From an uncultured Victivallales bacterium (GTDB lineage Bacteria > Verrucomicrobiota > Lentisphaeria > Victivallales > UBA1829): 64,000 nucleotides of DNA. Each line of letters begins with the position of its first letter. Position 1 is the stretch's first letter. The DNA lies in the NCBI GenBank assembly GCA_944390735.1, contig CALXRL010000052.1:52143-116142 (forward strand). Direction: 5' to 3'. This document shows, in pieces, positions 48,603 through 64,000 of this stretch. The notes under the pieces are model-generated. The model did not search any database. It worked only from the letters and a program-made list of their open reading frames with translations, and was not told the origin of the DNA. The translations under genes were made by a program, and so were the position numbers.

Positions 48603-48707
48603 GAGGAAAAGATAACGTGCATTGGGATAAAATCAACCGGAAAAGCGTATTTTTCCGCGGAAGGGAACGCTCCCGCGGTCTTTCGGGGACCGCGGGACGG
48701 GGAACGG

Positions 48708-49976: not shown

Positions 49977-50167
49977 CGTTTCACCTTATTATGTTGATTG
50001 TTTGGAGAATCAATAATATAAAGCCCTTTCGGGAAAGAAACAAGTCTTTTTCTGTATTTTCATCGGGAATTCCGGGACTCCCTCTGGATTTTCCGCATCC
50101 TTTTGCGTCATTTCCCGTGCGGGAAGGACGAGGCGCCACGGGGAAGGAATCCGGAGGGGAGGAGTCT

Positions 50168-52096
50168 TTATTCCTTGATTTCCAGAATGAGCATGGTGAC
50201 ATCGTCGGACTGTTCGGTGTCGCCGGCGAATTCGCGGACGCTGTCCATCACCCGTTTCAGGTCGCCGCGCAGATGCGTCTGCTTGCAGGCGGCGCGGTTC
50301 ATGACGGCGAGCAGACGTTTTTCTCCGAAGATTTCGCCCTTGCTGTTGACCGCTTCGGTGACGCCGTCGGTGTAGCAGAAGAGGCGGTCGCCCTTCCGGA
50401 GACGGAGTTTTCTTGCATGATATTCGCGGTTTTCCTGAATGCCGAGCGCGAATCCCTTGTCGAGCCGGAGCCAGTCGTAGAAGGTGCCTTCGCGCTTGAG
50501 AAGGGGCGGATTATGTCCGCCGTTGACATAGTGCAGAACCTTTGTGCTCAGATCGTAGATGCCGAAGAACATGGTCACGAACATGCAGACGTCGTTGTTT
50601 TCGCAGAGGGCCTTGTTGGTGCGTTCGATAATTTTGGCTGCGCCGTATCCGCTGAGGGCGTTGTTCTTGAGGGTTGTCTTTGCGCTCATCATGAACATGG
50701 CGGCGGGGATGCCCTTTCCGGAGACGTCGGCAATGACGAAGGCGATGCGGTTGGGATCGATCATGAAAAAGTCGTAGAAGTCGCCGGCGACCTCCTTGGC
50801 CGCGTGCATTTCGGCATAGAGGTCGAACTGTTCGATTTTGTCCGGGAAGGGGGGAAAGCGGTTGGGAAGAATGTCGCGCTGGATCTGGGCGGCGACTTCC
50901 AGTTCGCTGGTGATCCGTTCCCGGGAGGAGGTCTCTTTGGCAAGACGGTCGATATACTCCTTGAGATTGTCGGACATCCGGTTGAAGGTGCGCGCAAGCG
51001 ATCCGATTTCATCCTTCGACGATTCGGAAATGCGATGGTCCAGATTCCCCTGACCGAGGCGTGTGATCTCGCGCATCAGATTGCGGATGGGCGCGGTGAT
51101 GTAGCGCGAAACGATAATCAGTGCGCAATAGAGCATCAGCAGCGAGAAGGTCACAAAAAGCGTGACAAAGATCCTGTTGTGCAGATTGATGAGCGCGAAG
51201 AGTTCCGCCGCCGGCACCTGCACGGAGAGCATCATGCCGTTGCGGAGAACGCGGGCGAAGGAGTAGTACTGCGCCCCGTGAAGTTTGAACGGAATGACGG
51301 CGACTTCCGATTTGGTCGCCTTTTTCAGATTCCGGTACCAGGGGGCGTAGCGGAGGGAGCGTCCGGTCATTTTTTCGCTCCGGCCCGGACTGTACGTGTT
51401 GGCCAGAATGTAGTCGTGTTCCGGATCGCACATGAAAACGAAGCTGTTGCCGGTGGGTTTGATCTGTGTGATGGCCCGGATGACGTTCTGAAGCCGCCAG
51501 TCGATGGTGGCCAGTCCCACGCGTTCCCCTTCGGCGTTGTAGATGCCGGTTCCGACGGTGATGACAAGGGATTTGGTGCCTTCGGTGTCCAGATAGGGCG
51601 GCGACCATTTCACATCACCGCGTTTTTTCAGTCCCCGGATGAGGAGGCGGTACCAGCTCTGCTGAAGATAGCTGGTGATTTCCATGCTGTAATGACTGTC
51701 CAGCATCGGAATGCTGCTGTTGCTGCGGCAGGCGTAGAAGCTGACCGCCTTGCGCGAGGGATCCAGACGGTACGGATCGAACCAGATGCCTCCGCCCGCC
51801 GCGGTCGGAAACGTGCGGATGTTGTTCAGGACAATCGTGTTGCCGATTTTCTGCGAGCGGTCGGTGTAGAGATAGAAGACCGATCCGGCATTCGCCAGCG
51901 AGAGCGCATCCTGTTCCATTTCCGTGATGTACGTATTGATGCGTTCGCTTTTGTACTGCACGGTCGCCGCCAGTTCGTTGATCCGCAGTTTCCGGTAGTT
52001 GGTGGTCGTGTTGACCGCGTAGAAACTGAAGGCAAAGCTCATGATGAGCAGAAACGAGATGACAACAAGAAAAATTTTAGCCCGGATGGAACGCAT
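50168..52096 (-). CDS. Membrane sensor phosphatase with Cache-like ectodomain, HAMP and PP2C/SpoIIE domains (RsbU-like)
   Basis: TM segment (IFLVVISFLLIMSFAFSFYAV), a periplasmic Cache-like region and a second TM segment. HAMP (ITAPIRNLMREITRLGQGNLDHRI). PP2C motifs (GDFYDF, VIADVSGKGIPAAMFM, GGHNPP, YTDGVTEA). Confidence 0.85.
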   Translation of the reverse strand: MRSIRAKIFLVVISFLLIMSFAFSFYAVNTTTNYRKLRINELAATVQYKSERINTYITEMEQDALSLANAGSVFYLYTDRSQKIGNTIVLNNIRTFPTAAGGGIWFDPYRLDPSRKAVSFYACRSNSSIPMLDSHYSMEITSYLQQSWYRLLIRGLKKRGDVKWSPPYLDTEGTKSLVITVGTGIYNAEGERVGLATIDWRLQNVIRAITQIKPTGNSFVFMCDPEHDYILANTYSPGRSEKMTGRSLRYAPWYRNLKKATKSEVAVIPFKLHGAQYYSFARVLRNGMMLSVQVPAAELFALINLHNRIFVTLFVTFSLLMLYCALIIVSRYITAPIRNLMREITRLGQGNLDHRISESSKDEIGSLARTFNRMSDNLKEYIDRLAKETSSRERITSELEVAAQIQRDILPNRFPPFPDKIEQFDLYAEMHAAKEVAGDFYDFFMIDPNRIAFVIADVSGKGIPAAMFMMSAKTTLKNNALSGYGAAKIIERTNKALCENNDVCMFVTMFFGIYDLSTKVLHYVNGGHNPPLLKREGTFYDWLRLDKGFALGIQENREYHARKLRLRKGDRLFCYTDGVTEAVNSKGEIFGEKRLLAVMNRAACKQTHLRGDLKRVMDSVREFAGDTEQSDDVTMLILEIKE

Positions 52097-52098
52097 TG

Positions 52099-52506
52099 CT
52101 ACACCATCAGAGTTGTGATGTTGCAGCAATTGCGGTATTCATATTTCATGGATTCGGATTTTTCCTGTACGAGCAGCAGTCCGAGCCCGCCGACGGCGCG
52201 CTTCTCTATGGAGAGCGTGGTGTCGATCTTTTCGACGCGGGAGGGATCGAAGGGACGGGCGTTGTCTTTGATCTGGAGCGTGATCCGGTTGGTTTCGGTG
52301 TCGGCGGAAAGACGGATGAAAATTTCAATTTTCCCGCCGCCTCCGTATTTCTGCGTGTTCGTGACCAGCTCCTCGACGATCAGTTCAATGGTGAAGAGTT
52401 TGTTCTGAGGAAGACGGTGCGTCGCGAAGAACGATTCCAGATTCCGGTTGAACGGGATGAAATCGAACTCCCCGGCGGACACGTGAAATGTGAATTCTGC
52501 TGTCAT
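52099..52506 (-). CDS. Anti-sigma-factor-type Ser kinase (RsbW/SpoIIAB-like HATPase)
   Basis: 135 aa. EELVTNTQKYG is the N box, and DNARPFDP...GGLGLLLV are the G boxes. Its stop lies 2 nt before the phosphatase start. Confidence 0.75.
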   Translation of the reverse strand: MTAEFTFHVSAGEFDFIPFNRNLESFFATHRLPQNKLFTIELIVEELVTNTQKYGGGGKIEIFIRLSADTETNRITLQIKDNARPFDPSRVEKIDTTLSIEKRAVGGLGLLLVQEKSESMKYEYRNCCNITTLMV

Positions 52507-52642: not shown

Positions 52643-52670
52643 TTGACGGAAGGGGTTTCCGTGATACATT
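52643..52670 (+). promoter_or_regulatory. Candidate promoter of the lipid-biosynthesis operon
   Basis: TTGACG (52643-52648), a 16-nt spacer, then TACATT (52665-52670), ending 49 nt upstream of ATG 52720. Confidence 0.4.
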
Positions 52671-52719
52671 AATTTTGTCGTTTTCAGCAGGGGGGAGAAT
52701 CGGTTGGGAGAGATGAAAC

Positions 52720-53442
52720 ATGGGAAAAACAGCGCTGGTGATCGGCGCCGGACGGGGAATCGGAAAAGCGATCGCCCTGCGCCTGGCGCGCGATGGATTT
52801 GATCTGGTGGGAACTGCCAGTCGCGATGCGGCGTCGCTGGCGGAGGTGAGAAAAGGAACGGAGGAGGCGGGAAGACGGTTCACGGGACTGGTCTTTTCCG
52901 TGGAGGACCGCGCCGCCGCGGCGGAGGCGCTGACCGGCTGTTTCGGGGAGGATGCGCCGGAGGTGATCGTTTACAATGCGGGAATTGCGCGGGACAATCT
53001 GTTTGTGTTCATGTCGCCGGAGGAGTGGGACGCGGTGATCCGGACGAATCTGGACGGATTTTACAACACGGTCCAGCCGCTCCTGATGGGGATGATGGCG
53101 CGCCGCAGCGGGCGGATCGTGGCGATCAGCAGCGCTTCGGGACAGACGGGTCAGGGGGGACAGGTCAATTATTCCGCCTCGAAAGCGGGGCTGATCGGCG
53201 CGGTGAAAGCGCTGGCGCGGGAGGTCGGGCGCAAGAACATTCTGGTCAACGCGGTGGCGCCCGGATTCATTGAAACGGCCATGACGGCCGATCTGCCGCG
53301 GGAGAAAATCCTGCCGCTGATTCCGCTGAACCGGTCCGGACATCCGGAGGAGGTGGCGGGTGTGGTGTCGTTTCTCTGCGGTCCCGACTCCGCCTATATT
53401 CAGGGACAGGTGCTGGCGGTCAACGGCGGACTTGTCATGTAA
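52720..53442 (+). CDS. 3-oxoacyl-ACP reductase (SDR; FabG/ApeQ-like)
   Basis: TALVIGAGRGIGKAIA (TGxxxGxG), NAGI, the YSASKAG catalytic YxxxK, and NAVAPGFIET. Confidence 0.9.
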   Translation: MGKTALVIGAGRGIGKAIALRLARDGFDLVGTASRDAASLAEVRKGTEEAGRRFTGLVFSVEDRAAAAEALTGCFGEDAPEVIVYNAGIARDNLFVFMSPEEWDAVIRTNLDGFYNTVQPLLMGMMARRSGRIVAISSASGQTGQGGQVNYSASKAGLIGAVKALAREVGRKNILVNAVAPGFIETAMTADLPREKILPLIPLNRSGHPEEVAGVVSFLCGPDSAYIQGQVLAVNGGLVM

Positions 53443-53460
53443 GGCAGTTGGAGAGATCTG

Positions 53461-54954
53461 TTGGAAAAGGAATACGATTATCTGGTGGTCGGCAGCGGCG
53501 TGACCGGAATGACGATCAGTCTGCTGCTGGCCGACTGCGGTTTCCGGGTGCTGCTGCTGGAAAAGAGTGCGGTGATCGGCGGAAGCATGCAGCGTTTCCA
53601 CCGGTGCGGAATTCCGTTTGACACGGGGTTCCATTTTACGGCGGCGCTGACCGGCTGCATGGGGGACATGGTGCGGATGCTGAAGTTTTCTCCCGGACTT
53701 GAAACGATTCCGATCCGGACGAATTTGTATCTGGCGGACCGGAAGAAACTGTTTCATCTTCCGCGGGGGCGTTCCCGGGTGCGCGACTATTTCTGTTCGC
53801 TGTATCCGGCGGAGGCGGAGAAGATCCGGCGCTATTTCGAGACCGAGAAGCGGATCTTTGAAAACACGCCGCTCTTCAATCTGCGGGAGGACGGGTTTGC
53901 CATGTCCGGAATCCAGCAGGAGGATTTTCTCTCTTTGAAGACGTATCTGGATTCGCTTGGCATATCCGGGGAGGTGCGCAGTCTTCTTGCCAGTTTCACG
54001 AGCTGTCACGGGACTCCCTGCGGGGAGATCTCCCTGGCGAATCACTGCCGGGTGAGTTTCGGTTTGCTGGATGACCTGGTGCGGGTGAAAGGCAGCGGGG
54101 GAGCGTTTGTCGAGGCGTTCCGGAGACGCGCGGCGGAGCTGGGAATCGAGATCCGGACGCGCTGCACGATCGAAGAGTGCATTCCTTCGGAGCGTCTCCG
54201 CTGTCACAGGGTTCATCTGACGGATGGAAGCACGGTTTCGTTCCGGGACTGCGTCATGACGATTCATCCTCTTGCGGTGGCGGAACTTCTGCCGGAGCGG
54301 TTCCGTTCGGGACTCTTTCTGGAGCGGATTCGGGAATTTGAGGAGGGGTGCGGCTTTTTCACGCTGTTCGGCGTTCTGGAGGGTCCGTGTGAAACGTTCC
54401 GTCAGGAGCTGACCTCCAGTTTTTCGACCTCGGACATCGACAAGGTCATGACGCCGGATCACCCGGACGCCACGGCGACCGGCATCATGCTGACGGAGGA
54501 GACCGGGCTCGACGGCGCGCAATACCGGACCGTGACCGCGTTCGAAAACGTGTTCGCTCCCGAAACGGCGCAGTGGAATGCAACGCGCACGGGAAGGCGG
54601 GGAACGGAATATGACCGCTACAAGCAGCGGAAGGTCCGGGAGATGGAACGGAAGATCTATGAACTCTATCCGGAGTTTGAAGGGAGGCTTCGCATTCTGG
54701 ATTCGGCGTCGATGCTGACGTACCGGGATTATCTTTCGCCCTGCGGTTCCGCGTATGGGATCCGTCAGAAGATGGGGCAGCACAATCTGTTCGGGAAACT
54801 GCCGATCCGCAATTTTTATGTCGCGGGACAGAGTGCGCTTCTTCCGGGGGCGATGGGGGCGATGCTTTCGGCGTTTGTGATCTGGCGGAAGATGGTCGGA
54901 GAGAAGCTCTATCTTCGGAAAATCAACGAGGTTGCGGAAAGGGACGAGCCATGA
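53461..54954 (+). CDS. NAD(P)/FAD-dependent oxidoreductase, phytoene-desaturase (CrtI)-like
   Basis: YDYLVVGSGVTGMTISLLLADCGFRVLLLEKSAVIGGS. The C-terminus has the FYVAGQSALLPGAMGAMLSA FAD-binding tail. TTG start with GGAGAG 7 nt upstream. Confidence 0.8.
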   Translation: MEKEYDYLVVGSGVTGMTISLLLADCGFRVLLLEKSAVIGGSMQRFHRCGIPFDTGFHFTAALTGCMGDMVRMLKFSPGLETIPIRTNLYLADRKKLFHLPRGRSRVRDYFCSLYPAEAEKIRRYFETEKRIFENTPLFNLREDGFAMSGIQQEDFLSLKTYLDSLGISGEVRSLLASFTSCHGTPCGEISLANHCRVSFGLLDDLVRVKGSGGAFVEAFRRRAAELGIEIRTRCTIEECIPSERLRCHRVHLTDGSTVSFRDCVMTIHPLAVAELLPERFRSGLFLERIREFEEGCGFFTLFGVLEGPCETFRQELTSSFSTSDIDKVMTPDHPDATATGIMLTEETGLDGAQYRTVTAFENVFAPETAQWNATRTGRRGTEYDRYKQRKVREMERKIYELYPEFEGRLRILDSASMLTYRDYLSPCGSAYGIRQKMGQHNLFGKLPIRNFYVAGQSALLPGAMGAMLSAFVIWRKMVGEKLYLRKINEVAERDEP

Positions 54955-56201
54955 GCGGAAGCGGAAGAAGACGAGTGGTGATTACGGGAGCGGGAGTGGT
55001 CTCTTCGCTGGGCGCCACGCCGGAGGAGTTGTATGAGAATCTTGCCGCGGGCTGGTGCGGTGTGCGGCGGATGAGCGAATGGAAGGAGACGTCCGCTCCG
55101 CTGGCGGCTCCGGCGGTCCTGAGGGAGAATGTGGAGAAGACGATTCCCCGGATTTTCCGCCGCTCCATGGGACGGGTGGGACTGTATTCGGCGCTGGCGG
55201 CACGGGCCGCGGCGGAGGATGCGGAGCTTTCCGGGGAGTTCCTGGCGGGCGGGGAGTGCGGATGCGTCATCGGATCCACAATGGGCGGATCCGGAAGCAT
55301 TGCCGAGACGTTCCGTCTGCTGCTTTCGGGCAGGGGGGAGGAGATTCCGGCGACGCAGTTTTTCAAATGCGTCTCCCATACGGCGTCGTTCAATGCGGCG
55401 AATCTGCTTCGGATCTGCGGGGTGGTGGAGTCGCCGTCGGCGGCATGCGCATCGGGGCTTCAGGCGGTGGGGCTGGCGCGCGATCTGATCGCGGGGGGCG
55501 TGCAGAAGGCGGTGATCTGCGGCGGGGCGGAGGAGCTCTCGCCGGAGGTGAACGCCTCGTTTGATCTGATCTACGCTTCCGCGAACGCCGCGGAGGGGGA
55601 GAGCCGGGAGGAAAAAACAACCGGGGAGCCGCGCCCGTTTGACGCCGCGCGGCGCGGACTGGTCTGCGGAGACGGCGCGGGAATTCTGGTTCTGGAGGAG
55701 CTGGAACATGCTCTGGCGCGCGGGGCGCGGATCTATGGGGAGGTGATCGGGTTTGCCACCTGCGGATGCGGATCGGGATTGAGTCAGTCGGATGCGTCGG
55801 CGATTCTGCGCTGTCTGGAACTGGTGTGCCGGGATGCGGGGATCGCTCCGGAAGCGATCGACTATGTCAGCGCCCATGCGACGGCAACCGTGCAGGGGGA
55901 CCGCGAAGAGGCGGCCGCATTGCGGACCTTTTTCGGAGCCCGGGTTCCGGTGAGCAGTCTGAAGGGGCATCTCGGGCATACGCTCGGAGCGTCCGGGGCG
56001 CTGGAACTGATTGTTTCCCTGCTGATGATGCGGCGTTCGGAAATTCTGCCGACACTGCATCTGGAACAGATTGCGGAGGATTGCGGAGGGCTTGATCTTC
56101 CCCGGGAGATCCGTCGGCGCGAAATCGGGGTTTTCCTGAAAAACTGCTTTGCTTTTGGCGGGATCAATGCTACATTACTTTGTTCAAAATTCAAGAGATA
56201 G
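54951..56201 (+). CDS. Beta-ketoacyl-ACP synthase (KAS I/II type; ApeO/ApeR-like)
   Basis: RVVITGAGVVSSLG, active-site Cys in PSAACASG, and His residues in SAHATAT and GHLGHTLGASG. The ATGA start overlaps the upstream stop. Confidence 0.92.
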   Translation: MSGSGRRRVVITGAGVVSSLGATPEELYENLAAGWCGVRRMSEWKETSAPLAAPAVLRENVEKTIPRIFRRSMGRVGLYSALAARAAAEDAELSGEFLAGGECGCVIGSTMGGSGSIAETFRLLLSGRGEEIPATQFFKCVSHTASFNAANLLRICGVVESPSAACASGLQAVGLARDLIAGGVQKAVICGGAEELSPEVNASFDLIYASANAAEGESREEKTTGEPRPFDAARRGLVCGDGAGILVLEELEHALARGARIYGEVIGFATCGCGSGLSQSDASAILRCLELVCRDAGIAPEAIDYVSAHATATVQGDREEAAALRTFFGARVPVSSLKGHLGHTLGASGALELIVSLLMMRRSEILPTLHLEQIAEDCGGLDLPREIRRREIGVFLKNCFAFGGINATLLCSKFKR

Positions 56202-56254
56202 AGCTGGAACAGCTGACGCGTTTCCGCGCGGCGGCAGAGTGCGAAAGACCGATT

Positions 56255-56539
56255 ATGACAAGAGAAGAAATTGTAAATGCTGTGAATTCGACCTTTACCG
56301 AGATGCTGGAGGTGCCGGCGGAGGAGCTTTCTCCGGAAAAAGAGATCTTCAAGGATCTCGGACTTGACAGTCTGGATATGGTGGACCTGATGATCGGACT
56401 TCAGCGGAAATTCGGAATCTCCCTGCGTCAGAACGAGGAGATCCGGAAGATTGTGACGCTGGGGGATGTGTACGCGTTCTTTGAGAAGCTGGAGGCGAAA
56501 CGCCGGGAATCGGCCGCCTCCTCCTCCGGCGGGGAGTGA
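56255..56539 (+). CDS. Acyl carrier protein
   Basis: FKDLGLDSLDMVDLMIGLQRKFG carries the DSL phosphopantetheine site. 94 aa from ATG 56255. Confidence 0.9.
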   Translation: MTREEIVNAVNSTFTEMLEVPAEELSPEKEIFKDLGLDSLDMVDLMIGLQRKFGISLRQNEEIRKIVTLGDVYAFFEKLEAKRRESAASSSGGE

Positions 56540-56549
56540 CGCGGGGACC

Positions 56550-57290
56550 GTGCTTACGTTCGCTGTATACACGCAGGTTCTGCTTCTGACGATTCTGTAC
56601 TGCATGGCGGCGTGTCCCTTTCTGCTGTTGTTTCTGCTGCTGAACTGCGGCTCGGTGCGGCGGATGCGGGCGGTGGTCCGGTTTTTTATTTTATGGTATG
56701 GGAAGACGGTGATTTTTCTCGGGTGGTATCCCTATGTCCGTGTCCGGTTTGAGAACGTTTCGGGAAAGCCGGCGCGGGGGGGGATCTACATCTGCAATCA
56801 CCGGTCGTCTTCGGATCCGTTTCTGGTGGCGGCGTTCACGCTGGGGCGGCCGCCGGCGCAGGTGGTGAACCGATGGCCGATGCGTCTGCCTTTTTTCGGT
56901 TTTTTTGCGCGGCTTGGCGGATATCTTGATGTTACGGCTCATTCGTACGAGGAGGCGCGGGAGTGGGCGCGGGAAATGGTGAATGCCGATGTTCCGGTGG
57001 TGGTGTTCCCGGAAGGGACCCGGTCGGGAAGCCGGAAGATGAATCAGTTTCACGGAACCTTTTTCCGGATCGCCAGGGAGCTGGACTGCCGGCTGGTACC
57101 GGTGGCGATTACGGGCAACGAGCATTGTCCGGACCGGGATTTCCGGATGTCGTGCGGACGGGTGCGGGTCCGTCTGCTGCCGGAAGTGGAGCGGAGGATC
57201 GTCCGGGAGACGCCGCCGTTTCAGCTGAAGAATCTCGTGCGCCGGATTCTGATGGAGCAGACGCGGAAAATGGATGAGGCTGCTGAATGA
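56550..57290 (+). CDS. Lysophospholipid/1-acylglycerol-3-phosphate acyltransferase family protein (LPLAT; ApeD-like)
   Basis: N-terminal TM segment, the HX4D motif NHRSSSD, and VVVFPEGTRS. GTG 56550 is the likely start, 10 nt after the ACP stop. Confidence 0.85.
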   Translation: MLTFAVYTQVLLLTILYCMAACPFLLLFLLLNCGSVRRMRAVVRFFILWYGKTVIFLGWYPYVRVRFENVSGKPARGGIYICNHRSSSDPFLVAAFTLGRPPAQVVNRWPMRLPFFGFFARLGGYLDVTAHSYEEAREWAREMVNADVPVVVFPEGTRSGSRKMNQFHGTFFRIARELDCRLVPVAITGNEHCPDRDFRMSCGRVRVRLLPEVERRIVRETPPFQLKNLVRRILMEQTRKMDEAAE

Positions 57291-58585
57291 ATACATTTGA
57301 ATTTCTTCCGGAGAATGATTTTCTTCCGCCGGAGGCGCTCCGTGCGATGCAGGAACGGTATCTGCGGGAGCACCTGGAGTACTGCCGGACTCATTCGCCG
57401 TATTACCGGAACCTTCTGGGAGAGCGGGATTTCTCGGCGTTTCCGCTGGAGAGTCTGTCGGAACTTCCGTTGACGGACAAGAGGGATCTGGCAACTCACC
57501 TTGACGAGTTTCTGGCGTGTCCCTGGGAGGAGATTGAGGATATTGTCTTTTCCTCCGGAACGACGGGGACGCCCTGCCGGGTGGCGTATTCGGGCAGTGA
57601 CATGAAGCGTCTGACATACAATGAGCGCCGTTGTTTTCATGCGGCGGGGCTGACCGCGTCGGACCGGGTGCTGCTGACCTGCACGCTGGACCGCTGTTTT
57701 GTCGCCGGACTGGCGTATTATCTCGGAGTGCGCGCGGTCGGCGCGGCGGCGATCCGCAACGGACTGAACACGATCGAGAGTCATATCGAGGTGATGAAAT
57801 CGCTGCATCCGACGGCCATTGTGGGGGTGCCCTCCTTTCTGCGTCATCTGGGACTGGAGATGCGCAAGCGCGGAATTGACCTGTCGTCCGTCAGACGTCT
57901 GATCTGCATCGGGGAACCGATCCGGGATGAGACGTTGCGTCTGTCGGGTCTCGGGGAGCAGCTCGGAGAGATCTGGAAGGCTCCGATTCATTCGACGTAT
58001 GCGTCGTCGGAGATTGTTTCGAGTTTCTGCGAGTGCACGGCAACCTGCGGCGGGCATCTGATTGCCGATCTGGCGATTGTCGAAATCGTGGATGAGAAAG
58101 GGCGTGTCCTGCCGGAGGGGGAGATCGGCGAAGTGACGGTCACTCCGATGCGGGTGACGGGGATGCCGCTGATCCGGTTCCGAACCGGGGACATCAGTTT
58201 TCTGATCCGGGAACGGTGTGCGTGCGGACGCTGGTCGCCGCGTCTGGGGCCGATTCTGGGGCGGCGGGCCCACATGCTCAAGTGTCGCGGGACGACGTTA
58301 TATCCTCAGGTGCTGTATTCGGTGCTGGATCAGTCGCCGGAGGTTGCCGAATATTACGTTGTTGCATCGGGGGAGAATTTATCCGACCGGGTGGAGGCGG
58401 TGGTGGCGCTGAAGGTGCCGGGCTCTTCCACGGAGGCTCTTGCGGAGCGGCTCAAGGCAAAATGCCGTCTGCGGGTGCCGATCCGGGAGGTTCCGCTCGA
58501 AGAGGCGAGAAAACAGATCTTTTCGGTCTCCCGCAAGCCGGTCCGCTTCGTGGATCTGCGCAGGAAATCCAATCTGAATCTTTGA
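57287..58585 (+). CDS. Phenylacetate-CoA ligase-like (PaaK / coenzyme F390 synthetase family) adenylate-forming enzyme
   Basis: LPLTDKRDL...FSSGTTGTP (P-loop-like AMP motif)...TYASSE...FRTGD. The ATGA start overlaps the upstream stop. Confidence 0.85.
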   Translation: MNTFEFLPENDFLPPEALRAMQERYLREHLEYCRTHSPYYRNLLGERDFSAFPLESLSELPLTDKRDLATHLDEFLACPWEEIEDIVFSSGTTGTPCRVAYSGSDMKRLTYNERRCFHAAGLTASDRVLLTCTLDRCFVAGLAYYLGVRAVGAAAIRNGLNTIESHIEVMKSLHPTAIVGVPSFLRHLGLEMRKRGIDLSSVRRLICIGEPIRDETLRLSGLGEQLGEIWKAPIHSTYASSEIVSSFCECTATCGGHLIADLAIVEIVDEKGRVLPEGEIGEVTVTPMRVTGMPLIRFRTGDISFLIRERCACGRWSPRLGPILGRRAHMLKCRGTTLYPQVLYSVLDQSPEVAEYYVVASGENLSDRVEAVVALKVPGSSTEALAERLKAKCRLRVPIREVPLEEARKQIFSVSRKPVRFVDLRRKSNLNL

Positions 58586-58598
58586 GGGGAAGTTGGAG

Positions 58599-60065
58599 AT
58601 GGAGCTTTTATCGCGGTTTGATTTTTCGGAGGAGGAGATCCGCGCGCTTCCTCCCGGACGGCTCCTTTCCATGGAGATCGAGTTCACGCGGAAGTGCAAC
58701 TACCGCTGTCCCTACTGCTACGCCGTGGAAACGGATTCGGATGGTGCGGACGCCGCGGACGAAATGACGGAGGAGGAGATTCGTTCCGCGATCCGTCAGG
58801 CGTCGGAACTCGGGGCCCGGAAGATTGTGGTTCTCGGGGGCGAGCCGCTGGTCTATCCGCGTCTGAATGAGATGATTGACTTGATTTCCGATCTCGGAAT
58901 GGGGTGCGAGATTTTCACGAACGGCGGACTGATGACGCCGGAACGGGCGGCATTTTTCTTTTCGCGCGGCTGCCGGGTAGTGGTGAAGCTCAATACCTTC
59001 AAGCCGGAGATTCACGACCGCATGACCGGACGGAAAAACTCTCTTTCGCTTGCCCTGGGCGCTCTGGAAATGCTCCGCGCAGCGGGGTACCGCCATTTGA
59101 AGAAAATGCTCGGGGCGGCGACCGTGCTCAGTTCGCTGAACATCGACGAAGCGGTCGGGATGTGGAAATTTCTGCGGGATCATAACATCGAACCCTATTT
59201 CGAGTGCATTACGCCGCAGGGACGGCTGCTGGAACATCGGACTCTTCTTCCGGAACCGGAAAAAGTGAAGAGGGTTTTCGAGGAGATTGCCGCGCTGGAC
59301 GAACAGTACGGACATCACTGGAAACCGCAGCCGCCGCTGGTGGGGCAGCGCTGTTTCCGGCACTGCTACTCCTGCGTGGTGGAGAGCCGGGGAACGGTGG
59401 TGCCCTGCGTCGGATTGAACGAGCCGATCGGGTCCATCCGTGAAAAACCGCTCCGGGAGATTCTGCTGGACAGCATGATTCTTCGCAAGCTGAAGAACTA
59501 TCGGAAATACATCAAGTCGCCGTGCCGGGAGTGTTCGGACTTCGATCACTGTTACGGGTGCCGGGGCGCCGCCTGGCAGATGACGGGGGATTATCTGGCC
59601 GCGGATCCCACCTGCTGGAAGAATGCGGCGAAGGAGAAGAAGATTGCGGTGCTGCCGGTCGATGCGCGTGCGTACATTCCGCATAAGCCGCCGGTTGCGA
59701 TGGTGTCGGAGATTGTGCACATCGCCGATTCGGGCGGAGACATCCGGTCGGTGATCGCGGAGGAGTGCGTGTTTGCCGATGAACACGGCGTGCTCGACAA
59801 TGCGGCTCTCATTGAGCTGGCCGCCCAGTCGGTTGCCGCCTTGAACGGATTCATGACGCCGGGGAGCATTCCGGATGGGATGCTGGTGGAGGTGAACCGG
59901 TTTTCCTGTCACGCCCCCGTGAAAACCGGAGAATGCGTGACAACCAGATTCGTCACCACGACGGAGTTCCTGCCGTGGCATATCATTGATTTCGAGATCT
60001 TCGGCGGGGATGGAAAACGGAAAGCGGAAGGAGTGCTGAAACTGTGCGTGCCGGACGAAAAGTGA
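58599..60065 (+). CDS. Radical SAM enzyme with SPASM domain, fused to a C-terminal hotdog (ApeI/FabZ-like dehydratase-type) domain
   Basis: CNYRCPYC (CX3CX2C) and GGEPLV. The SPASM cysteines are CVVESRGTVVPC and CRECSDFDHCYGC, plus DPTC. The C-terminal ~135 aa is YIPHKPPVAMVSEIVHI...LIELAAQSVAALNGF...GMLVEVNRFSCHAPVKTGE. Confidence 0.85.
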   Translation: MELLSRFDFSEEEIRALPPGRLLSMEIEFTRKCNYRCPYCYAVETDSDGADAADEMTEEEIRSAIRQASELGARKIVVLGGEPLVYPRLNEMIDLISDLGMGCEIFTNGGLMTPERAAFFFSRGCRVVVKLNTFKPEIHDRMTGRKNSLSLALGALEMLRAAGYRHLKKMLGAATVLSSLNIDEAVGMWKFLRDHNIEPYFECITPQGRLLEHRTLLPEPEKVKRVFEEIAALDEQYGHHWKPQPPLVGQRCFRHCYSCVVESRGTVVPCVGLNEPIGSIREKPLREILLDSMILRKLKNYRKYIKSPCRECSDFDHCYGCRGAAWQMTGDYLAADPTCWKNAAKEKKIAVLPVDARAYIPHKPPVAMVSEIVHIADSGGDIRSVIAEECVFADEHGVLDNAALIELAAQSVAALNGFMTPGSIPDGMLVEVNRFSCHAPVKTGECVTTRFVTTTEFLPWHIIDFEIFGGDGKRKAEGVLKLCVPDEK

Positions 60066-60679
60066 TTCTGTCGATCCTGCTGATCCTCTCTGCGGCATTG
60101 TCCTGCGTCGCGGGGGAGGGCGCGGAAGAGATCCTGCAAAAGATCCGCCGAAAGATGGGGGCTGTTTCCACGCTTCAGGCGGAGTTCGTGCAGAAAAAGC
60201 GGATCGCCTCCCTGAAGCACACCTTGATGATTCGCGGGGAGCTGGCGCTGGACCGGAAGGGAAAAATGGCGTGGAGAGTGCACTCCCCGATGCGCTACGT
60301 CTGTCTGATCGACGGAAACTCCCTGACGCAGTGGGATGAGGATTCGGATTCGGTCCTGAAACTGGATGTCTCGAAAAATCCGGCGCTCCAGGTGCTGTCG
60401 AAGTCGATGACCCGCTATTTCGGCGGGCGGTTCGACGAGATGGCCGATGAGTTTTCCATTTCGCTTCAGGGGCCTCTTTCTCTTCGGCTTGTTCCGCGGA
60501 AGGAGTCCATGATTTCGCGGTTCATCCGGGAAATCGAGGTGGAAACCTCTCCGGATTACAGTTTTATTACCCGGGTCGTGATCCGCGAGGTCGGCGGGGA
60601 TGAATCCGTGATCGAATACAGCAATGTCCGAAGGAATCAACCCGTACCGGAGTCGACATGGCGGGCAGGGGCAAACTGA
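60044..60679 (+). CDS. LolA-like lipoprotein-carrier family protein (ApeL-like)
   Basis: Signal peptide VILSILLILSAALSCVAG. STLQAEFVQKKRIASLKHTLMIRGELALDRKGKMAWRVHSPMRYVCLIDGNSLTQWD fits the LolA pattern. GTG start with GGAAGGAG 9 nt upstream. Confidence 0.75.
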   Translation: MRAGRKVILSILLILSAALSCVAGEGAEEILQKIRRKMGAVSTLQAEFVQKKRIASLKHTLMIRGELALDRKGKMAWRVHSPMRYVCLIDGNSLTQWDEDSDSVLKLDVSKNPALQVLSKSMTRYFGGRFDEMADEFSISLQGPLSLRLVPRKESMISRFIREIEVETSPDYSFITRVVIREVGGDESVIEYSNVRRNQPVPESTWRAGAN

Positions 60680-63600
60680 GGAATCTTCCGGGGCGCTTCG
60701 TCCTGCTGGCGGCGAGGCATCCGCTGGCGGTCCGGGCGCTGGTTGCGCTTCTGTTTCTTGCGGGGGCCTGGCTGATTTTCCGGGGACATTTTTCCAATGA
60801 TATCGCTTCGATGCTGCCGGATGGTTCGCGTTCCGCGAAAAGTTATACCGAAATCAACCGGAGCGGAATGTTCCATAAAGTGATCCTTTCGTTTTCCCGG
60901 AAGGACGGCCGCTCTTTTCATGAAATCTCTCCGGGAGGGATGCTGGACCGGATCGCCGCGGAGCTGACGCTTCTTCCACAGGTAAGACGGGTCGAGTATC
61001 AGTATCTTTCCGGGGATCCGGCGGAACAGTTGAGGAATCTGGTGCTCTGGATGCCGCAGCTGACCTCTCCATCGGACCTCAAAACGGGCAGGGAGGAAAT
61101 CGAAAAGACGGTGCGCGGATTGTTCCGGCGGATGCTTCTTCCATCCTCTGTCGGGCAGGTTCCGCTGATGCGTTCGGATCCGTTCAGCCTGAACGGAGTG
61201 CTGTTTCAGAGACTGCGGGAGTTCCAGTCCGTGACGGGCCTGCGCGTTTCTCCAAACACGCCGTATCTGATAACCGAGGACGGAAAACAGGCGATGATGC
61301 TTCTGGATACCGGAGTTCCGGTTTCCGATGCCGTGAATGCGCGGACTCTTCTGGCTTCCGTTCATGCGGTTTTGAACAGGTGTCTGCCGGAGGAGGTTGC
61401 CTGCGATGTGATCAGCGCGCACCGGCGTGCCGTTTGGAACGAGAGCGTTCTGCGGGGGGACGTGAAAACGGTCTGCTGGATGTCCACCATTCTGTTTGCC
61501 GTGCTTTTCATTGTCTTCTACCGTTGCGATGTGCGGAGTTTTCTGATTCCTCTGATTCCCGTTCTGGCTTCCGCGATCGTGCTTGGATGGATGACTCCGG
61601 TATTCGAGAATGTGCTGTTTTTTGTGGTCGGAATGGGTGGTGTTGTCATCAGCCTTGCGGTGGACTACGGGATTCACACCTACGCCGTGATGACGGGAGG
61701 CGGAGGTTTTTTGCGTCTGATCCGGATTGTCCCGGCGCTCTGTGCGGGGGCGCTGACGTCGATTGCCGCGTTTCTGCTGTTTTCGTTTTCGAAGACGGAA
61801 GGAATCCGGCAGCTGGGATTTTTTTCGGGAGCGAGTCTTCTGCTGAGTCTTCTGCTGATGCTGTTGCTTCTGCCGTCGATTCTGTCGGGGGGAAAACGGC
61901 ACGACATCCGTTTTCGCGCGCCGGAGTTTCCGGTCCGCCGTCCGCGGACGGCCGTTTTCATCTGGCTGGCGCTTCTTCTCTGCTGTGTCTGTACGCTTCC
62001 CGCCTTGAAGTTCCATTCCGATGTCCGGCAGTTTGACGTCTCGCCGAAGACGTTCGACGAGGAGGAAAAACGGGTTTCCGCGGGATTCTTTTCCGAACCG
62101 CGTCCGGCGATGCTGCTGTTTCAGGGGAGGGATGCCGAGTCGGTCCGCTGCGAGGCGGAGAAGATTCTTTCCGTTCTCCGGGGGAAGACGGAAGGATCGT
62201 TTTCCTCCCCGACGGATCTGTATCCGAGTCGTGAGACGCGGGAAAAAAATCTTTCGCAATGGCGTGCTTTTCTCCGTTCCGGGGAGTGGGCGAACCTGCG
62301 GACGGAATTGAATTCTTCCGGCAGTCGTGCCGGATTCCGTGAAGAGTTCTTCAACCCGTTTTATGACGGGATCCGGCAGGGGACGGAGCATCCGCCGAAG
62401 TCTCCGCCGCGCCTGCTGGAGCCTCTGCTGAATCGCTTTGAGGTACGGAACGGAGAGTTCTTTACGCTTGCGGTGCTCTTTCCGGATCGTCCGGAGCTGG
62501 TGGAAGCGGTGGAGTCTCTGACTCAAAGAACGGTGGTTTCGCAGAACGGATTGGCGGAGCGGATGTCTGAAGACGTTTCCCGTGGAATGGTTCTGCCGGG
62601 AGTGCTGGCCGTGCTGCTGGTCGTGCTGATTACCCGCGCCTTCTTCCGGGGCTCGGCGGATACGCTGACGGCGCTCGTTCCCGTGCTGACCAGTCTGGTG
62701 GTGACGGGCGCGGTGTTTGCGCTTTGCGGCATGGCGGTCAATCTCTCGGTCCTGATTGCGGCAATCATTCTCTGCGGACTTTCTGTCGATTACGGGATCT
62801 TCATGACCGGTTCCCTGCGGAACGGCTGTGTGGATAACGGAATTTTCAATGCTGTGACCCTTTCCGCCGTGACCTCCGCGGCGGGTGGCGCGACCGTGAT
62901 CTTCACGCGCCATCCGATGCTGCGGGACGCGGGACTGACGCTGATGATCGGCATCACGGTCGCATGGCTGACCGGCGTGCTGGTCGTGCCTGCTATGAAG
63001 AGTCTGAAAGGAAAAACGGTGGGAAAGACGGCGATTCTGCTCTCGTTCTGTGCGTTATTTGGACTCCTCTGCACCTCCTGCGCGTTTGAGCCGTTTGAGT
63101 ATGAAGTTCCGGAAGGCCGCCCCGAAATCGGATCCATTGCGGATGGAATGCCGCCGGAGGCGGTGATTGAGGCCTCGGTGGTCGGGGAGTACCGCTTTTC
63201 CAAACTCTCGCTGCTGAGCCTGACCCGGATCGACCTTCGGACCGGCCGGATTCATGTCGCCGGACTGACTCCCGCGGGCATGAAGATTTTTGATCTCAGC
63301 GGGACCGCGGAACATCCCGGCGAATGCCGCTGGATTCCCGGGAAATACTGGGAGGGACACGAGGAACAGGCCTCGCGCAGAATCCTTTCCGACATCTCCG
63401 CAATTTATCGGAATCTCCTTCCGGAACACTTTGAAAAATACAAGTTTACCGATGACGGAAAAAAACTTGTTGTCCGCGAAGGAGATATCCGCTATGTATT
63501 CGCGGGAGCGCCGCCGCATCTGATCGAAAAGACCATCTCCGAAAACGGCTCACCCGTTCTGCGGATCCGCTATTACAAATGGAGCGACGGATTCCCGATG

Positions 63601-63684
63601 AACATCTCACTGGAAAATTTGAAATATCATTATCGTCTTGCAATCCGGACTCTGTCCGTGGAAAGGGGAAATCATGAACGTTAG
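60658..63684 (+). CDS. MMPL/RND-superfamily exporter (ApeM-like), fused in frame to a C-terminal lipoprotein-like module (ApeN/DUF3261-like by position)
   Basis: Two 6-TM bundles separated by large loops. At 62995 an in-frame MKSLKGKTVGKTAILLSFCALFGLLCTSC segment looks like a complete lipoprotein signal peptide. A ~200-aa soluble domain follows it. Confidence 0.85.
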   Translation: MAGRGKLRNLPGRFVLLAARHPLAVRALVALLFLAGAWLIFRGHFSNDIASMLPDGSRSAKSYTEINRSGMFHKVILSFSRKDGRSFHEISPGGMLDRIAAELTLLPQVRRVEYQYLSGDPAEQLRNLVLWMPQLTSPSDLKTGREEIEKTVRGLFRRMLLPSSVGQVPLMRSDPFSLNGVLFQRLREFQSVTGLRVSPNTPYLITEDGKQAMMLLDTGVPVSDAVNARTLLASVHAVLNRCLPEEVACDVISAHRRAVWNESVLRGDVKTVCWMSTILFAVLFIVFYRCDVRSFLIPLIPVLASAIVLGWMTPVFENVLFFVVGMGGVVISLAVDYGIHTYAVMTGGGGFLRLIRIVPALCAGALTSIAAFLLFSFSKTEGIRQLGFFSGASLLLSLLLMLLLLPSILSGGKRHDIRFRAPEFPVRRPRTAVFIWLALLLCCVCTLPALKFHSDVRQFDVSPKTFDEEEKRVSAGFFSEPRPAMLLFQGRDAESVRCEAEKILSVLRGKTEGSFSSPTDLYPSRETREKNLSQWRAFLRSGEWANLRTELNSSGSRAGFREEFFNPFYDGIRQGTEHPPKSPPRLLEPLLNRFEVRNGEFFTLAVLFPDRPELVEAVESLTQRTVVSQNGLAERMSEDVSRGMVLPGVLAVLLVVLITRAFFRGSADTLTALVPVLTSLVVTGAVFALCGMAVNLSVLIAAIILCGLSVDYGIFMTGSLRNGCVDNGIFNAVTLSAVTSAAGGATVIFTRHPMLRDAGLTLMIGITVAWLTGVLVVPAMKSLKGKTVGKTAILLSFCALFGLLCTSCAFEPFEYEVPEGRPEIGSIADGMPPEAVIEASVVGEYRFSKLSLLSLTRIDLRTGRIHVAGLTPAGMKIFDLSGTAEHPGECRWIPGKYWEGHEEQASRRILSDISAIYRNLLPEHFEKYKFTDDGKKLVVREGDIRYVFAGAPPHLIEKTISENGSPVLRIRYYKWSDGFPMNISLENLKYHYRLAIRTLSVERGNHER

Positions 63685-64000
63685 AACGTATATTGCGGAA
63701 CATCTGGCGGAGATTGTCCATGCCGGATCGGAAGCGGAGGCTTCCATTGTTTTCGGAAAGGATTTTCCGGTGTTTCAGGGACACTTCCCCGGAAATCCGA
63801 CTCTTCCCGGCGTCTGCGAACTGATCTGTGTCGAGGTCCTGCTGGAGAAACTATTCGGCAGAACTTCAGCCCTGACGGATCTTTCCAAAGCGAAATTCTT
63901 CTCTCCGGTTGCTCCGGAGGAACCTTTGAAAATCGTACTTTCCGGCCTTCCTGCGAAGTCGGAGGAGCTGTCCGGAGCGGAGTTGTCCGCGCGTCTTGTT
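63674..64000 (+). CDS. FabZ/FabA-like 3-hydroxyacyl-ACP dehydratase (ApeI/ApeP-like), partial; runs off the window
   Basis: Manual translation from ATG 63674 gives MNVRTYIAEHLAEIVHAGSEAEASIVFGKDFPVFQGHFPGNPTLPGVCELICVEVL..., which contains the GHFPxxPxxPGV hotdog signature. It is not in the ORF track because there is no stop inside the window. It overlaps the MMPL stop by 11 nt. Confidence 0.8.
   Translation, partial: MNVRTYIAEHLAEIVHAGSEAEASIVFGKDFPVFQGHFPGNPTLPGVCELICVEVLLEKLFGRTSALTDLSKAKFFSPVAPEEPLKIVLSGLPAKSEELSGAELSARLV

Follow-up and report, generated by a model that had tools for sequence, protein, structure and literature searches.

A ten-gene operon in an uncultured Victivallales bacterium as a likely reduced relative of the aryl-polyene/flexirubin pathway

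The window analysed here, a 64,000-nucleotide stretch of a contig from an uncultured Victivallales bacterium, contains a set of ten genes (52720-~64048) that we read, with a probability of about 60%, as a complete, self-contained operon and a reduced, anaerobe-specific relative of the aryl-polyene (APE)/flexirubin pathway. Such pathways make an outer-membrane lipid by means of a highly reducing type II polyketide/fatty-acid-like system. The operon described here probably makes a modified short polyene-type lipid that is exported to the outer membrane. The first-pass annotation presented it as an undescribed system, which was too strong, as the cluster family was described bioinformatically as a 'ladderane/PUFA candidate' by Rattray 2009 (PMC2649909) and a radical-SAM enzyme of its relatives has a curated model (TIGR04072). 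The cluster is an uncharacterised aryl-polyene-type variant, noticed before by bioinformatics and widespread in anaerobes.

A complete ten-gene operon

The ten genes are all encoded on the + strand (as are all features below unless stated) and are tightly packed at 52720-64000. Pfam and NCBIfam confirmed the domains proposed for them, in order a ketoreductase (KR), a CrtI-fold flavoenzyme, a ketosynthase (KS), an acyl carrier protein (ACP), an LPLAT acyltransferase, a PaaK-type ligase, a radical SAM/SPASM-hotdog fusion, a LolA-like carrier, an MMPL-DUF3261 fusion and an ApeI-like dehydratase. The proposed overlapping junctions were confirmed, and measure 4 nt for flavoenzyme/KS and LPLAT/ligase, 22 nt for radical SAM/LolA and LolA/MMPL, and 11 nt for MMPL/ApeI; the remaining junctions are gaps of 10-80 nt.

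The cluster had been taken to be truncated by the window end, which is wrong. On a contig with an identical MMPL-DUF3261 protein (L001), used to read the 3' end, the last gene (124 aa) stops 48 nt past the window end, at position 64048; beyond it come an rsmD-like gene and guaA, both convergent. On the 5' side the neighbours are HATPase_c_2 and dCache/HAMP/SpoIIE genes in divergent orientation. The operon is complete, and the genes that border it on either side are unrelated to it. The 213-nt intergenic region before the first gene holds a promoter-like site (TTGACG-16-TACATT with TG, 52643..52670), which is a consensus match only, and a divergent promoter-like site on the - strand (52568-52541). 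Such matches are no more numerous in this region than expected from shuffling, and the position suits an operon start. The nine complete genes are all full length, with dN/dS values of 0.05-0.19 in comparisons with the loci L006 and L007, and the operon genes of the window lineage are under purifying selection. Their order is not due to chance, as it recurs in ~80 loci from several phyla.

Biosynthetic and export proteins shared with aryl-polyene and flexirubin clusters

The KR (52720..53442, 240 aa) is a 3-oxoacyl-ACP reductase of the SDR type (ApeQ/FlxB-like; adh_short_C2, E 2.5e-49) with a dN/dS of 0.10. It scored 276 bits against the FabG model NF004200 (cutoff 273) and second, with 259 bits, against the flexirubin model FlxB, under the cutoff of 340.

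The sole KS of the operon (54951..56201, 416 aa) had its best PDB sequence matches in 7f27 (291 bits), taken as AbApeR from the published AbApeR residue numbering, and 4ewg (275 bits), which is PpApeR (PMC8358021). The same search gave 229 bits for FabF and ~200 bits for FabB, and the XdApeO (6qsp) and AbApeO (7f28) chains were not among the best 60 matches listed, the lowest of which had 149 bits. The catalytic residues Cys166, His309 and His343 are present, and the aryl-stacking Tyr135 and Phe202 of AbApeR align with Phe137 and Phe204. Judged by bit scores rather than by a tree, the KS is ApeR-like, and not a housekeeping FabF/FabB. ApeR is the initiating KS and alone produces short polyenes, with up to 4 double bonds in vitro (PMC8358021; PMC8253772).

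The single ACP (56282..56539, 85 aa; gene call on L001) matches PP-binding (E 1.9e-9), carries a DSL motif with Ser30 and has a dN/dS of 0.07. It is followed by a 246-aa ApeD-like LPLAT, a lysophospholipid/glycerol-phosphate acyltransferase (56550..57290; PF01553, E 6e-20), with the motifs H84xxxxD89 and FPEGTRS. The PaaK-type adenylating enzyme (57287..58585, 432 aa), a FlxY/ApeH-like acyl-ACP or CoA ligase, has FlxY as its top named model (387 bits over the whole length, cutoff 520); PaaK models gave 123-164 bits and PaaK structures E 2e-36. No gene for starter formation (TAL, chorismate lyase) is conserved near the loci of the family.

Three export functions are encoded by two genes. The ApeL-like periplasmic lipid carrier (60044..60679, 211 aa; LolA, E 5e-13) begins with a signal/lipobox-like sequence, and its top named model is LolA2_flexi (77.6 bits, cutoff 125). 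The next protein (1008 aa) joins an RND/MMPL-type, HAE3-like and ApeM-like transporter part (60658..63225; HAE3 TIGR00921 E 3e-16, HpnN-like E 6e-14, MMPL 16 bits and under cutoff) to a C-terminal LolB-like, ApeN-like DUF3261 module (63226..63684; PF11659, 29.9-33.8 bits, over the cutoff of 22.3). This module was found in 35 loci by tblastn and is a stand-alone gene in a 16-locus group typified by a Nitrospirota locus. LolA, MMPL and DUF3261 make up the APE transport triad (PMC8253772).

The KS, the ligase and this triad support the earlier assignment to aryl-polyene/flexirubin-type envelope-lipid clusters. With the APE clusters (apeA-R) of E. coli CFT073, Xenorhabdus doucetiae and Acinetobacter baumannii, the operon shares an adenylating enzyme, a dedicated ACP, the ApeR-type KS, the SDR ketoreductase, the LPLAT, a two-subunit ApeI/ApeP-type hotdog dehydratase, the export set, and co-directional, overlapping genes. 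In contrast to them, it has one ACP instead of two, a radical SAM/SPASM enzyme fused to an ApeP-like subunit that has lost its catalytic His, and an added CrtI-fold flavoenzyme; ApeO:ApeC KS-CLF, thioesterase, glycosyltransferase, SAM methyltransferase and ApeG are missing, and the hosts of window-type clusters are strict anaerobes. The absence of thioesterase, glycosyltransferase, methyltransferase and KS/CLF from the window, as well as the radical SAM enzyme in the ApeP slot and the inserted flavoenzyme, had been pointed out before and were borne out. Flexirubin clusters (Flx; Bacteroidota) have the logic of a type II PKS plus export in common with the operon, whereas the window ligase, KR and LolA-like protein all score under the equivalog cutoffs, tyrosine ammonia-lyase and dialkylresorcinol (DarA/DarB) genes are absent, and the radical SAM enzyme and flavoenzyme are extra. 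No gene-for-gene match to any characterised pathway was found.

The radical SAM/hotdog fusion, its putative dehydratase partner and the flavoenzyme

The fusion consists of a radical SAM and SPASM part (58599..59648, residues 1-350; Radical_SAM E 5e-26, SPASM E 1e-7) and an ApeP-like hotdog part (59649..60065, residues 351-488). C33, C37 and C40 (CxxxCxxC) and seven SPASM cysteines are invariant across 24 homologues. Against named models, the radical SAM part scored far under all cutoffs (AhbD 110 of 500; also NirJ2 and PqqE). In a confident AF2 model the fusion forms a single compact body (pLDDT 91.6, pTM 0.90), and the fold matches of its radical SAM part are generic SPASM enzymes (PqqE, SkfB, anSME, SuiB), which do not indicate the chemistry.

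The best PDB match of the hotdog part is 6qsr_B (E 0.019), taken as XdApeP since a 6qsr_B fragment scores 110 bits on PF22817. This family is listed for the hotdog part by precomputed Pfam, and our own hmmscan gave sub-threshold hits, in relatives only. The catalytic Glu (E406, in IE..AQ) is invariant across the family, whereas the His of GH[LF]P, catalytic in FabZ/ApeP, is replaced by V/E/I/C/F. The last gene of the operon (63674..64000 in the window, extending to 64048) encodes the ApeI-like/FabZ-like subunit, for which precomputed Pfam lists PF22818; our own scan gave FabA (E 3e-4) and ApeI-like (E 4e-3), both sub-threshold, and its PDB matches include 3esi (E 2e-5) and 6qsr_A, XdApeI (E 2e-3). 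Here the pattern is reversed, with GHFP (His37) invariant in 54 orthologues and a variable residue at the FabZ Glu position. This complementarity is seen in the sequences and implies one composite dehydratase site in a putative complex of the fusion and the ApeI-like protein. The radical SAM/SPASM enzyme would then be physically part of, and tethered to, the dehydratase.

The FAD-dependent oxidoreductase with a CrtI/amine-oxidase fold (53461..54954, 497 aa; NAD_binding_8, Amino_oxidase) is distant from characterised enzymes, with no PDB match in a sequence search. Its AF2 model (pLDDT 88) had the gamma-carotenoid desaturase 4rep as top fold match (TM 0.72, ~15% identity). The taxonomic spread of its homologues (n=559) is that of the fusion family. 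As an enoyl reductase, the flavoenzyme could abolish a polyene.

Family distribution, proposed pathway and alternative products

The fusion family has 779 matches and occurs in at least 539 species-level genomes, all from anaerobes and none from anammox bacteria. The genes are strongly co-conserved, with their order kept across ~80 loci from Lentisphaerota, Nitrospirota, Omnitrophota, Verrucomicrobiota, Kiritimatiellales and Geobacteraceae. Most relatives, including the cultured Victivallis vadensis, have six more genes directly downstream, for a thioesterase, a KS with a small CLF-like partner, two B12-radical-SAM enzymes and a GT2 glycosyltransferase. A B12-radical-SAM enzyme from relatives scores over the cutoff of TIGR04072 'rSAM_ladder_B12'. 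For the second KS, AmcF is the nearest match, at 200 bits along the full length; together with its partner (no Pfam match), this KS resembles the KS-CLF pairs of the ishigamide (Iga11/12) and cispentacin (AmcF/AmcG) systems, which are without the export genes and the radical SAM fusion of the window. In the favoured reading the 16-gene form is ancestral, and the gut lineage of the window has shed the six genes. That this lineage can do without them argues for early, head-group-proximal roles of the SPASM enzyme and the flavoenzyme.

By homology, the FlxY/ApeH-like ligase would adenylate a starter, a carboxylic acid that is most likely aromatic, and load it onto the ACP. The ApeR-like KS, the KR and the heterodimeric dehydratase may then add a few malonyl units with no enoyl reduction, giving a short conjugated enoyl or polyenoyl chain. 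In the composite dehydratase, the ApeI-like protein would supply His and the radical-SAM-fused hotdog Glu for ACP-bound intermediates. The radical SAM/SPASM domain and the flavoenzyme are predicted to alter either the chain tethered to the ACP or its head group, with two-electron oxidation, desaturation/isomerisation or C-C bond formation as candidate chemistries. The LPLAT would move the acyl chain onto a lysolipid-type acceptor, and by analogy with ApeL, ApeM and ApeN the LolA-like, RND/MMPL and LolB-like DUF3261 proteins would carry the lipid to the outer membrane.

In an unlikely alternative, the cluster yields an omega-substituted fatty acid, either largely saturated or specifically unsaturated, or else a polyunsaturated chain made anaerobically, rather than a conjugated aryl-polyene pigment. 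The flavoenzyme would then serve as an enoyl reductase, a saturase or a desaturase, and the radical SAM enzyme as a desaturase. A FabI-type reductase is absent while the flavoenzyme is always present, its homologues bear the label 'all-trans-retinol 13,14-reductase' in some sources, CrtI is not replaced by Kuste3336 or Kuste3607 (PMC4790861), and anaerobic PUFA synthesis was proposed for homologous clusters by Rattray 2009. However, the KS, the two dehydratase subunits, the ligase and the export genes all belong to the APE/flexirubin type, the flavoenzyme fold is matched best by a carotenoid desaturase, and the cluster has never been tied to a PUFA-type product. We also doubt that the operon is half of a pathway whose thioesterase, KS-CLF, B12-radical-SAM and glycosyltransferase genes lie elsewhere in the genome, giving the product of the 16-gene clusters. 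The directly downstream position of these genes in most relatives would fit, and the inspected span was 64 kb of the window genome and 20 kb per related MAG contig. None of genes 11-16 is in the 64-kb window, though, and the ten-gene border recurs in lineages 63-92% identical with differing flanking genes; 12-gene intermediates (L010-L012) fit stepwise loss rather than relocation. A decaying, productless remnant that has already lost its elongating KS-CLF and its tailoring genes would also lack the six genes, but is highly improbable given the selection on the operon, the intact genes with their catalytic motifs, and the retention of the ten-gene form over deep divergence (to 63% radical SAM protein identity), as in L008, L009 and L013, which are 63-66% identical with intact genes and different genomic flanks.

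The link drawn in the first-pass annotation to earlier ladderane proposals is true homology, while a product with cyclobutane or other radical-cyclised rings is very unlikely, the least probable of the readings. The clusters of Kuenenia stuttgartiensis (kuste3335-3352) and Desulfotalea psychrophila (DP1853-1860), likewise without established function, are homologous to the window family. The N-terminal 123 aa of Kuste3343 share 42% identity with the radical SAM enzyme (first 128 residues compared), the N-termini of Kuste3344 and Kuste3336 are 34% and 24% identical to the ligase and the flavoenzyme, respectively, the FabG-like reductase Kuste3341 shows a 27% match, and Kuste3342 matches a relative's B12-radical-SAM enzyme. 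The tethering of a radical enzyme to a chain-processing dehydratase would also suit such chemistry. Against it, the family occurs in the non-anammox species counted above, Desulfotalea makes no ladderanes despite its syntenic cluster (PMC2649909), and ladderane synthesis is now placed in the anammox-specific kuste3603-3608 (bioRxiv 10.64898/2026.05.19.726425), from which the window family is distinct. The window lineage also lacks the elongating KS and the B12-radical-SAM enzymes. Unlike the Kuenenia and Desulfotalea clusters, the window has no B12-radical-SAM enzymes, SAM methyltransferases, extra KSs or glycosyltransferase. Unexplained 'ladderane' BGC calls reported in non-anammox anaerobes (PMC9902471) are possibly clusters of the window's kind.

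The operon and its relation to aryl polyene pathways

Ten co-directional genes occupy 52720-64000 of the window on the + strand, and Pfam and NCBIfam confirmed each domain named there by the first-pass annotation. They encode an SDR ketoreductase (gene 1, 52720-53442), an FAD amine-oxidase/CrtI-like protein (gene 2, 53461-54954), a ketosynthase (KS; gene 3, 54951-56201), an ACP (gene 4, 56282-56539), an LPLAT acyltransferase (gene 5, 56550-57290), a PaaK-type adenylating enzyme (gene 6, 57287-58585), a radical SAM/SPASM protein with a C-terminal hotdog domain (gene 7, 58599-60065; hereafter, the fusion), a LolA-like protein (gene 8, 60044-60679), an RND/MMPL-like transporter with a C-terminal DUF3261 module (gene 9, 60658-63684) and a FabZ/ApeI-like dehydratase (gene 10, starting at 63674). 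Five junctions overlap (by 4, 4, 22, 22 and 11 nt), and the remaining gaps are 10-80 nt. The catalytic motifs are intact, including KS Cys166/His309/His343, ACP Ser30, LPLAT HX4D, and the radical SAM CX3CX2C motif and seven SPASM cysteines of gene 7. A promoter-like site, identified by consensus match only, lies in the intergenic region upstream of gene 1.

The cluster had been described as truncated by the window end, which proved wrong in substance. The whole cluster is present on metagenome contig L001, which encodes an identical MMPL-DUF3261 protein, and its last gene (124 aa) ends 48 nt past the window. Beyond that gene, rsmD-like and guaA genes run convergently, and on the upstream side HATPase_c_2 and dCache/HAMP/SpoIIE genes run divergently, thus the operon is a discrete ten-gene unit.

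The best PDB matches of the window KS were AbApeR (7f27, 291 bits) and PpApeR (4ewg, 275 bits), versus 229 bits for FabF and about 200 bits for FabB; on the fabF model it scored 280 bits (cutoff 494). The XdApeO (6qsp) and AbApeO (7f28) chains were absent among the 60 KS matches listed (lowest 149 bits). The structure 4ewg was named PpApeR in an earlier study, and 7f27 agrees with the AbApeR residue numbering used there (PMC8358021). At the positions of the aryl-stacking residues Tyr135 and Phe202 of AbApeR, the window KS has Phe137 and Phe204. [quoted passage not shown] The window KS is nearer to the ApeR structures than to FabF/FabB by bit scores, not by a tree, and is predicted to be an ApeR-type (FabB-like, homodimeric) initiating ketosynthase.

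The ligase matched the FlxY model over its full length (387 bits, cutoff 520), with PaaK models next, and PaaK structures with an E value of 2e-36. A single ACP is encoded two genes upstream, the LPLAT gene lying between them, and by gene content the ligase is a putative ApeH-type adenylating enzyme with a dedicated ACP. The export set is complete, comprising LolA (E 5e-13), an HAE3/MMPL-type transporter (E 3e-16) and DUF3261 (33.8 bits, above cutoff). The KS, the ligase and the export set together support the APE-like interpretation of the first-pass annotation. No PDB relative of the flavoenzyme was found by sequence search. The closest fold to its AF2 model (pLDDT 88) is the gamma-carotenoid desaturase 4rep (TM 0.72), followed by NicA2, plant PDS and CrtI at about 15% identity.

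Known systems differ from the operon in several respects. The ApeO:ApeC KS-CLF heterodimer of APE clusters has no counterpart in the operon or in the 64 kb; relatives have a second KS (KS2) and a 200-aa partner without a Pfam match downstream. From the APE lipid-anchoring set ApeD/ApeJ/ApeK only the LPLAT (ApeD) is present, and the subunit resembling ApeP is fused to the radical SAM enzyme and lacks the catalytic His. A flexirubin cluster proper is ruled out by scores under the cutoff for all three flexirubin models (FlxY 387/520, FlxB 259/340, LolA2_flexi 78/125) and by the lack of Dar or TAL genes. Housekeeping FAS II is ruled out by the KS and the export genes; no FabD, FabH or FabI was found in the operon.

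The best-supported reading is a naturally minimised APE/flexirubin-type outer-membrane-lipid pathway. Such a highly reducing type II PKS pathway would end in an outer-membrane lipid, and the dehydratase-tethered radical SAM enzyme and the CrtI-fold flavoenzyme would represent its adaptation to anaerobes. Initiation (ligase, ACP and ApeR-like KS) and the reductive cycle would be kept in the minimised form, together with both unusual redox enzymes, a single acyltransferase and the machinery for export. The flavoenzyme may serve as a desaturase, isomerase or saturase.

Relatives and the reduced form in the window lineage

The radical SAM-hotdog fusion family had 779 matches below 1e-5 among the scored candidates, and all but three of the 120 matches listed have Radical_SAM, SPASM and ApeP-like domains, most being ~480 aa. 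A copy of the fusion was found in 539 GTDB species-level genomes, and the 559 homologues of the flavoenzyme have the same taxonomic spread. A profile search with the fusion against 1.84 billion representatives returned 1,051 proteins below 1e-30; the best 150 listed include full-length fusions, unfused ~350-aa forms and proteins in which the module is joined to other domains. Uncultured Victivallales/Lentisphaeria MAGs hold the closest loci (91-92% identity), and several remoter relatives with the reduced cluster (59-66% identity) stem from MAG collections of human gut or rumen. Among the carriers further away are the cultured Victivallis vadensis DSM 14823 and Oligosphaera ethanolica DSM 24202, as well as Nitrospirota/Thermodesulfovibrionales, Omnitrophota, Verrucomicrobiota, Kiritimatiellales, Geobacteraceae and Ratteibacteria. 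Anaerobes predominate in these groups.

A tblastn search of the fetched loci with the window proteins detected the order KR-FAD-KS-ACP-LPLAT-ligase-rSAM/hotdog-LolA-MMPL(DUF3261)-ApeI in nearly every locus of sufficient length. In most relatives six further genes (genes 11-16) follow the ApeI-like gene, and the 16-gene order is kept across phyla. The V. vadensis locus (L024), at about 51.7-69.0 kb of NZ_QEKH01000012, encodes a 4HBT-type thioesterase, KS2 (381 aa; best named model cispentacin AmcF, 200 bits), a 200-aa protein in the chain-length-factor position directly after KS2, two B12-binding radical SAM proteins and a GT2-DUF2062 glycosyltransferase; the B12-radical SAM/KS2 region spans 15417-21350 of that locus. 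The 200-aa partner of KS2 had no Pfam match, and its PDB search returned noise only. One of the B12-binding proteins matched TIGR04072 (rSAM_ladder_B12; 474 bits, cutoff 360), a model titled 'lipid biosynthesis B12-binding/radical SAM protein', and members of this family are present in most relatives. In the window and in V. vadensis the MMPL-type transporter carries DUF3261 as a C-terminal fusion; in 16 loci typified by that of a Nitrospirota genome (L044, 14513-15178) DUF3261 is a separate gene. Clustering of ~1,200 ORFs from the loci gave no further conserved neighbours, in particular no starter-acid pathway.

In the window lineage (L001, L006-L009 and L013; radical SAM proteins 63-92% identical) the cluster stops at the ApeI-like gene, and in two other loci (L010 and L011) only the thioesterase and KS2 are kept beyond it. 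L005 breaks off inside the MMPL gene, and L012 runs out of contig beyond the ApeI-like gene. MAGs of the ten-gene lineage include CAJKAR01, CASEYW01, URKJ01, CASFTV01 and DDJH01. None of genes 11-16 was found elsewhere in the 64-kb window, in agreement with the earlier observation that the window has no second KS/CLF, thioesterase or glycosyltransferase; relatives do have the 4HBT thioesterase and the GT2 glycosyltransferase. The ten-gene form is flanked by differing contexts in L008, L009 and L013, and the nine complete window genes are full length with dN/dS of 0.05-0.19 versus L006 and L007. Selection therefore keeps the reduced operon in place, and it is not a wreck. The window form has lost KS-CLF elongation, B12-dependent tailoring, the thioesterase and glycosylation, a pattern suggesting early or head-group-proximal chemistry as the task of the SPASM enzyme and the flavoenzyme. 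For heterologous expression the minimised operon offers a convenient construct, and it separates these two enzymes from the B12-dependent steps.

The radical SAM fusion and the Kuenenia clusters

Against every named family the radical SAM part of the fusion fell far short of the cutoff (AhbD 110/500, then NirJ2 and PqqE). AF2 modelled the fusion confidently as one body (pTM 0.90), and the fold neighbours are generic SPASM enzymes only (PqqE, SkfB, anSME, SuiB and MoaA), giving no clue to the chemistry. The best PDB match of the fused hotdog domain was XdApeP (6qsr_B, E 0.019), a chain confirmed as ApeP-like by Pfam (110 bits), and those of the ApeI-like protein were 3esi and XdApeI (6qsr_A, E 0.002 for XdApeI). 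Precomputed Pfam assignments give PF22817 and PF22818 for the hotdog pair; our own scans were sub-threshold, and a Pfam scan of the isolated hotdog domain had no match.

The active site of the FabA/FabZ family combines a His from one subunit with an acidic residue from the other. Across 24 aligned members, the fused hotdog has V/E/I/C/F in place of the GH(L/F)P His, and the Glu in its IE..AQ motif (E406) never varies. In the ApeI-like protein GHFP is invariant among 54 orthologues, and the FabZ Glu position is unconserved. From this split, and from the architecture of the FabZ site, we infer an obligate heterodimer with one composite site, which would place the radical SAM enzyme in a dehydratase complex handling ACP-bound intermediates. 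Functional coupling in the cluster is supported by other fusions. In other organisms the SPASM module is fused to B12-radical SAM proteins in either order (P0265 and P0380, 807 and 803 aa), and P0095 (727 aa) joins the whole radical SAM-hotdog protein to LolA; P0243 (720 aa) is similar to P0095 in length only. SPASM fusions to TIR-GAF, Fer2, DUF3050 and ABC ATPase domains belong to remoter SPASM families and were set aside.

A tentative and rather doubtful extension is that the fusion and the ApeI-like protein form one composite enzyme, the radical part of which would act directly on ACP-tethered enoyl/polyenoyl intermediates, with the hotdog providing half of the dehydratase site and substrate docking. 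If true, radical-modified lipids of a new class would be common in the outer membranes of gut and environmental anaerobes. Such chemistry would then also explain the Kuste3343/DP1855 enzymes, and possibly 'ladderane' BGC calls outside anammox bacteria.

The first-pass annotation had named the cluster its best candidate for an undescribed system. A wholly undescribed system is not supported, as homologous FAS-like clusters were reported in 2009 by Rattray et al. (PMC2649909). These are common to Kuenenia (kuste3335-3352), Desulfotalea, Geobacter and Pelobacter, and encode SAM-radical enzymes, phytoene-dehydrogenase-like proteins, a 'phenylacetyl-CoA ligase' and an unknown membrane protein (PMC2649909). 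We compared translated N-terminal fragments of the Kuenenia proteins, taken from S2 Table of Javidpour 2016, with the window and V. vadensis proteins. The Kuste3343 fragment is 42% identical to the window radical SAM protein from residue 1 (E 2e-29), that of Kuste3342 39% identical to the V. vadensis TIGR04072 protein, that of Kuste3344 34% identical to the window ligase (E 5e-18) and that of Kuste3336 24% identical to the window flavoenzyme (E 7e-10), indicating that the window cluster is homologous to kuste3335-3352. The Kuenenia/Desulfotalea cluster shares with the window a Kuste3343/DP1855-type SPASM radical SAM enzyme beside a PaaK-like ligase and an amine-oxidase-like flavoenzyme, whereas its TIGR04072 B12-binding radical SAM protein is absent from the window.

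This homology bears out one part of the earlier ladderane speculation. Ladderane synthesis as the function of the cluster is very unlikely given the distribution of the family and the literature. Desulfotalea carries such a cluster without having ladderanes (PMC2649909). Javidpour et al. reported no new fatty acids, did not detect Kuste3342 or Kuste3343 protein, and found that CrtI was not replaced by Kuste3336 (PMC4790861). Ladderane synthesis is now placed in the anammox-specific kuste3603-3608 cluster (bioRxiv 10.64898/2026.05.19.726425). The antiSMASH 'ladderane' calls in many non-anammox phyla, reported as unexplained (PMC9902471), could be anaerobe-type APE-like clusters homologous to kuste3335-3352 and not the anammox-specific cluster.

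Literature searches on radical SAM in APE clusters, on TIGR04072 and on arylpolyene/ladderane in Geobacter and Lentisphaerae found no characterised product or enzyme of the family. The cluster family is uncharacterised, widespread and open to experiment, and with V. vadensis DSM 14823 and O. ethanolica DSM 24202 in culture a direct search for its product is feasible. It would be a further widespread case, located in the cell envelope of strict anaerobes, in at least 539 species of several phyla, including human-gut Victivallales.

Surroundings of the operon in the window

Two divergent genes upstream of the operon encode an RsbW-like HATPase_c_2 kinase (52099-52506, - strand) and a dCache/HAMP/SpoIIE phosphatase (50168-52129, - strand), and together (50168-52506) they look like a partner-switching signalling pair. 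Of the relatives, just the closest two, L006 and L007, have the pair conserved beside the cluster, which makes a regulatory link to the operon possible. An 835-aa ORF without Pfam match (49901-52408, + strand) is probably a spurious antisense ORF. Three very long - strand ORFs over the cluster genes (52684-54783, 699 aa; 60637-62913, 758 aa; 58608-60098, 496 aa) were regarded not as genes but as the artefact that GC-rich coding sequence usually produces.

A PLD-type, cardiolipin-synthase-like gene with two PLDc_2 domains and PLDc_N (45937-47457, + strand) lies 5 kb upstream of the cluster; the ORFs beside it (44872-45921, 47531-48244 and 48243-49463) had no Pfam match. Further upstream, an HlyD-type membrane-fusion protein and an ABC transporter (ABC_membrane + ABC_tran) make up a pair at 40286-43552 (- strand), and a tRNA gene (44068-44138, - strand) is the sole Rfam match in the window. 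Positions 1-10000 have a GC content of 0.46-0.51, versus about 0.57 in the rest of the window, a strongly negative AT skew (-0.22 to -0.31) and few long ORFs, and may be a foreign or non-coding-rich segment.
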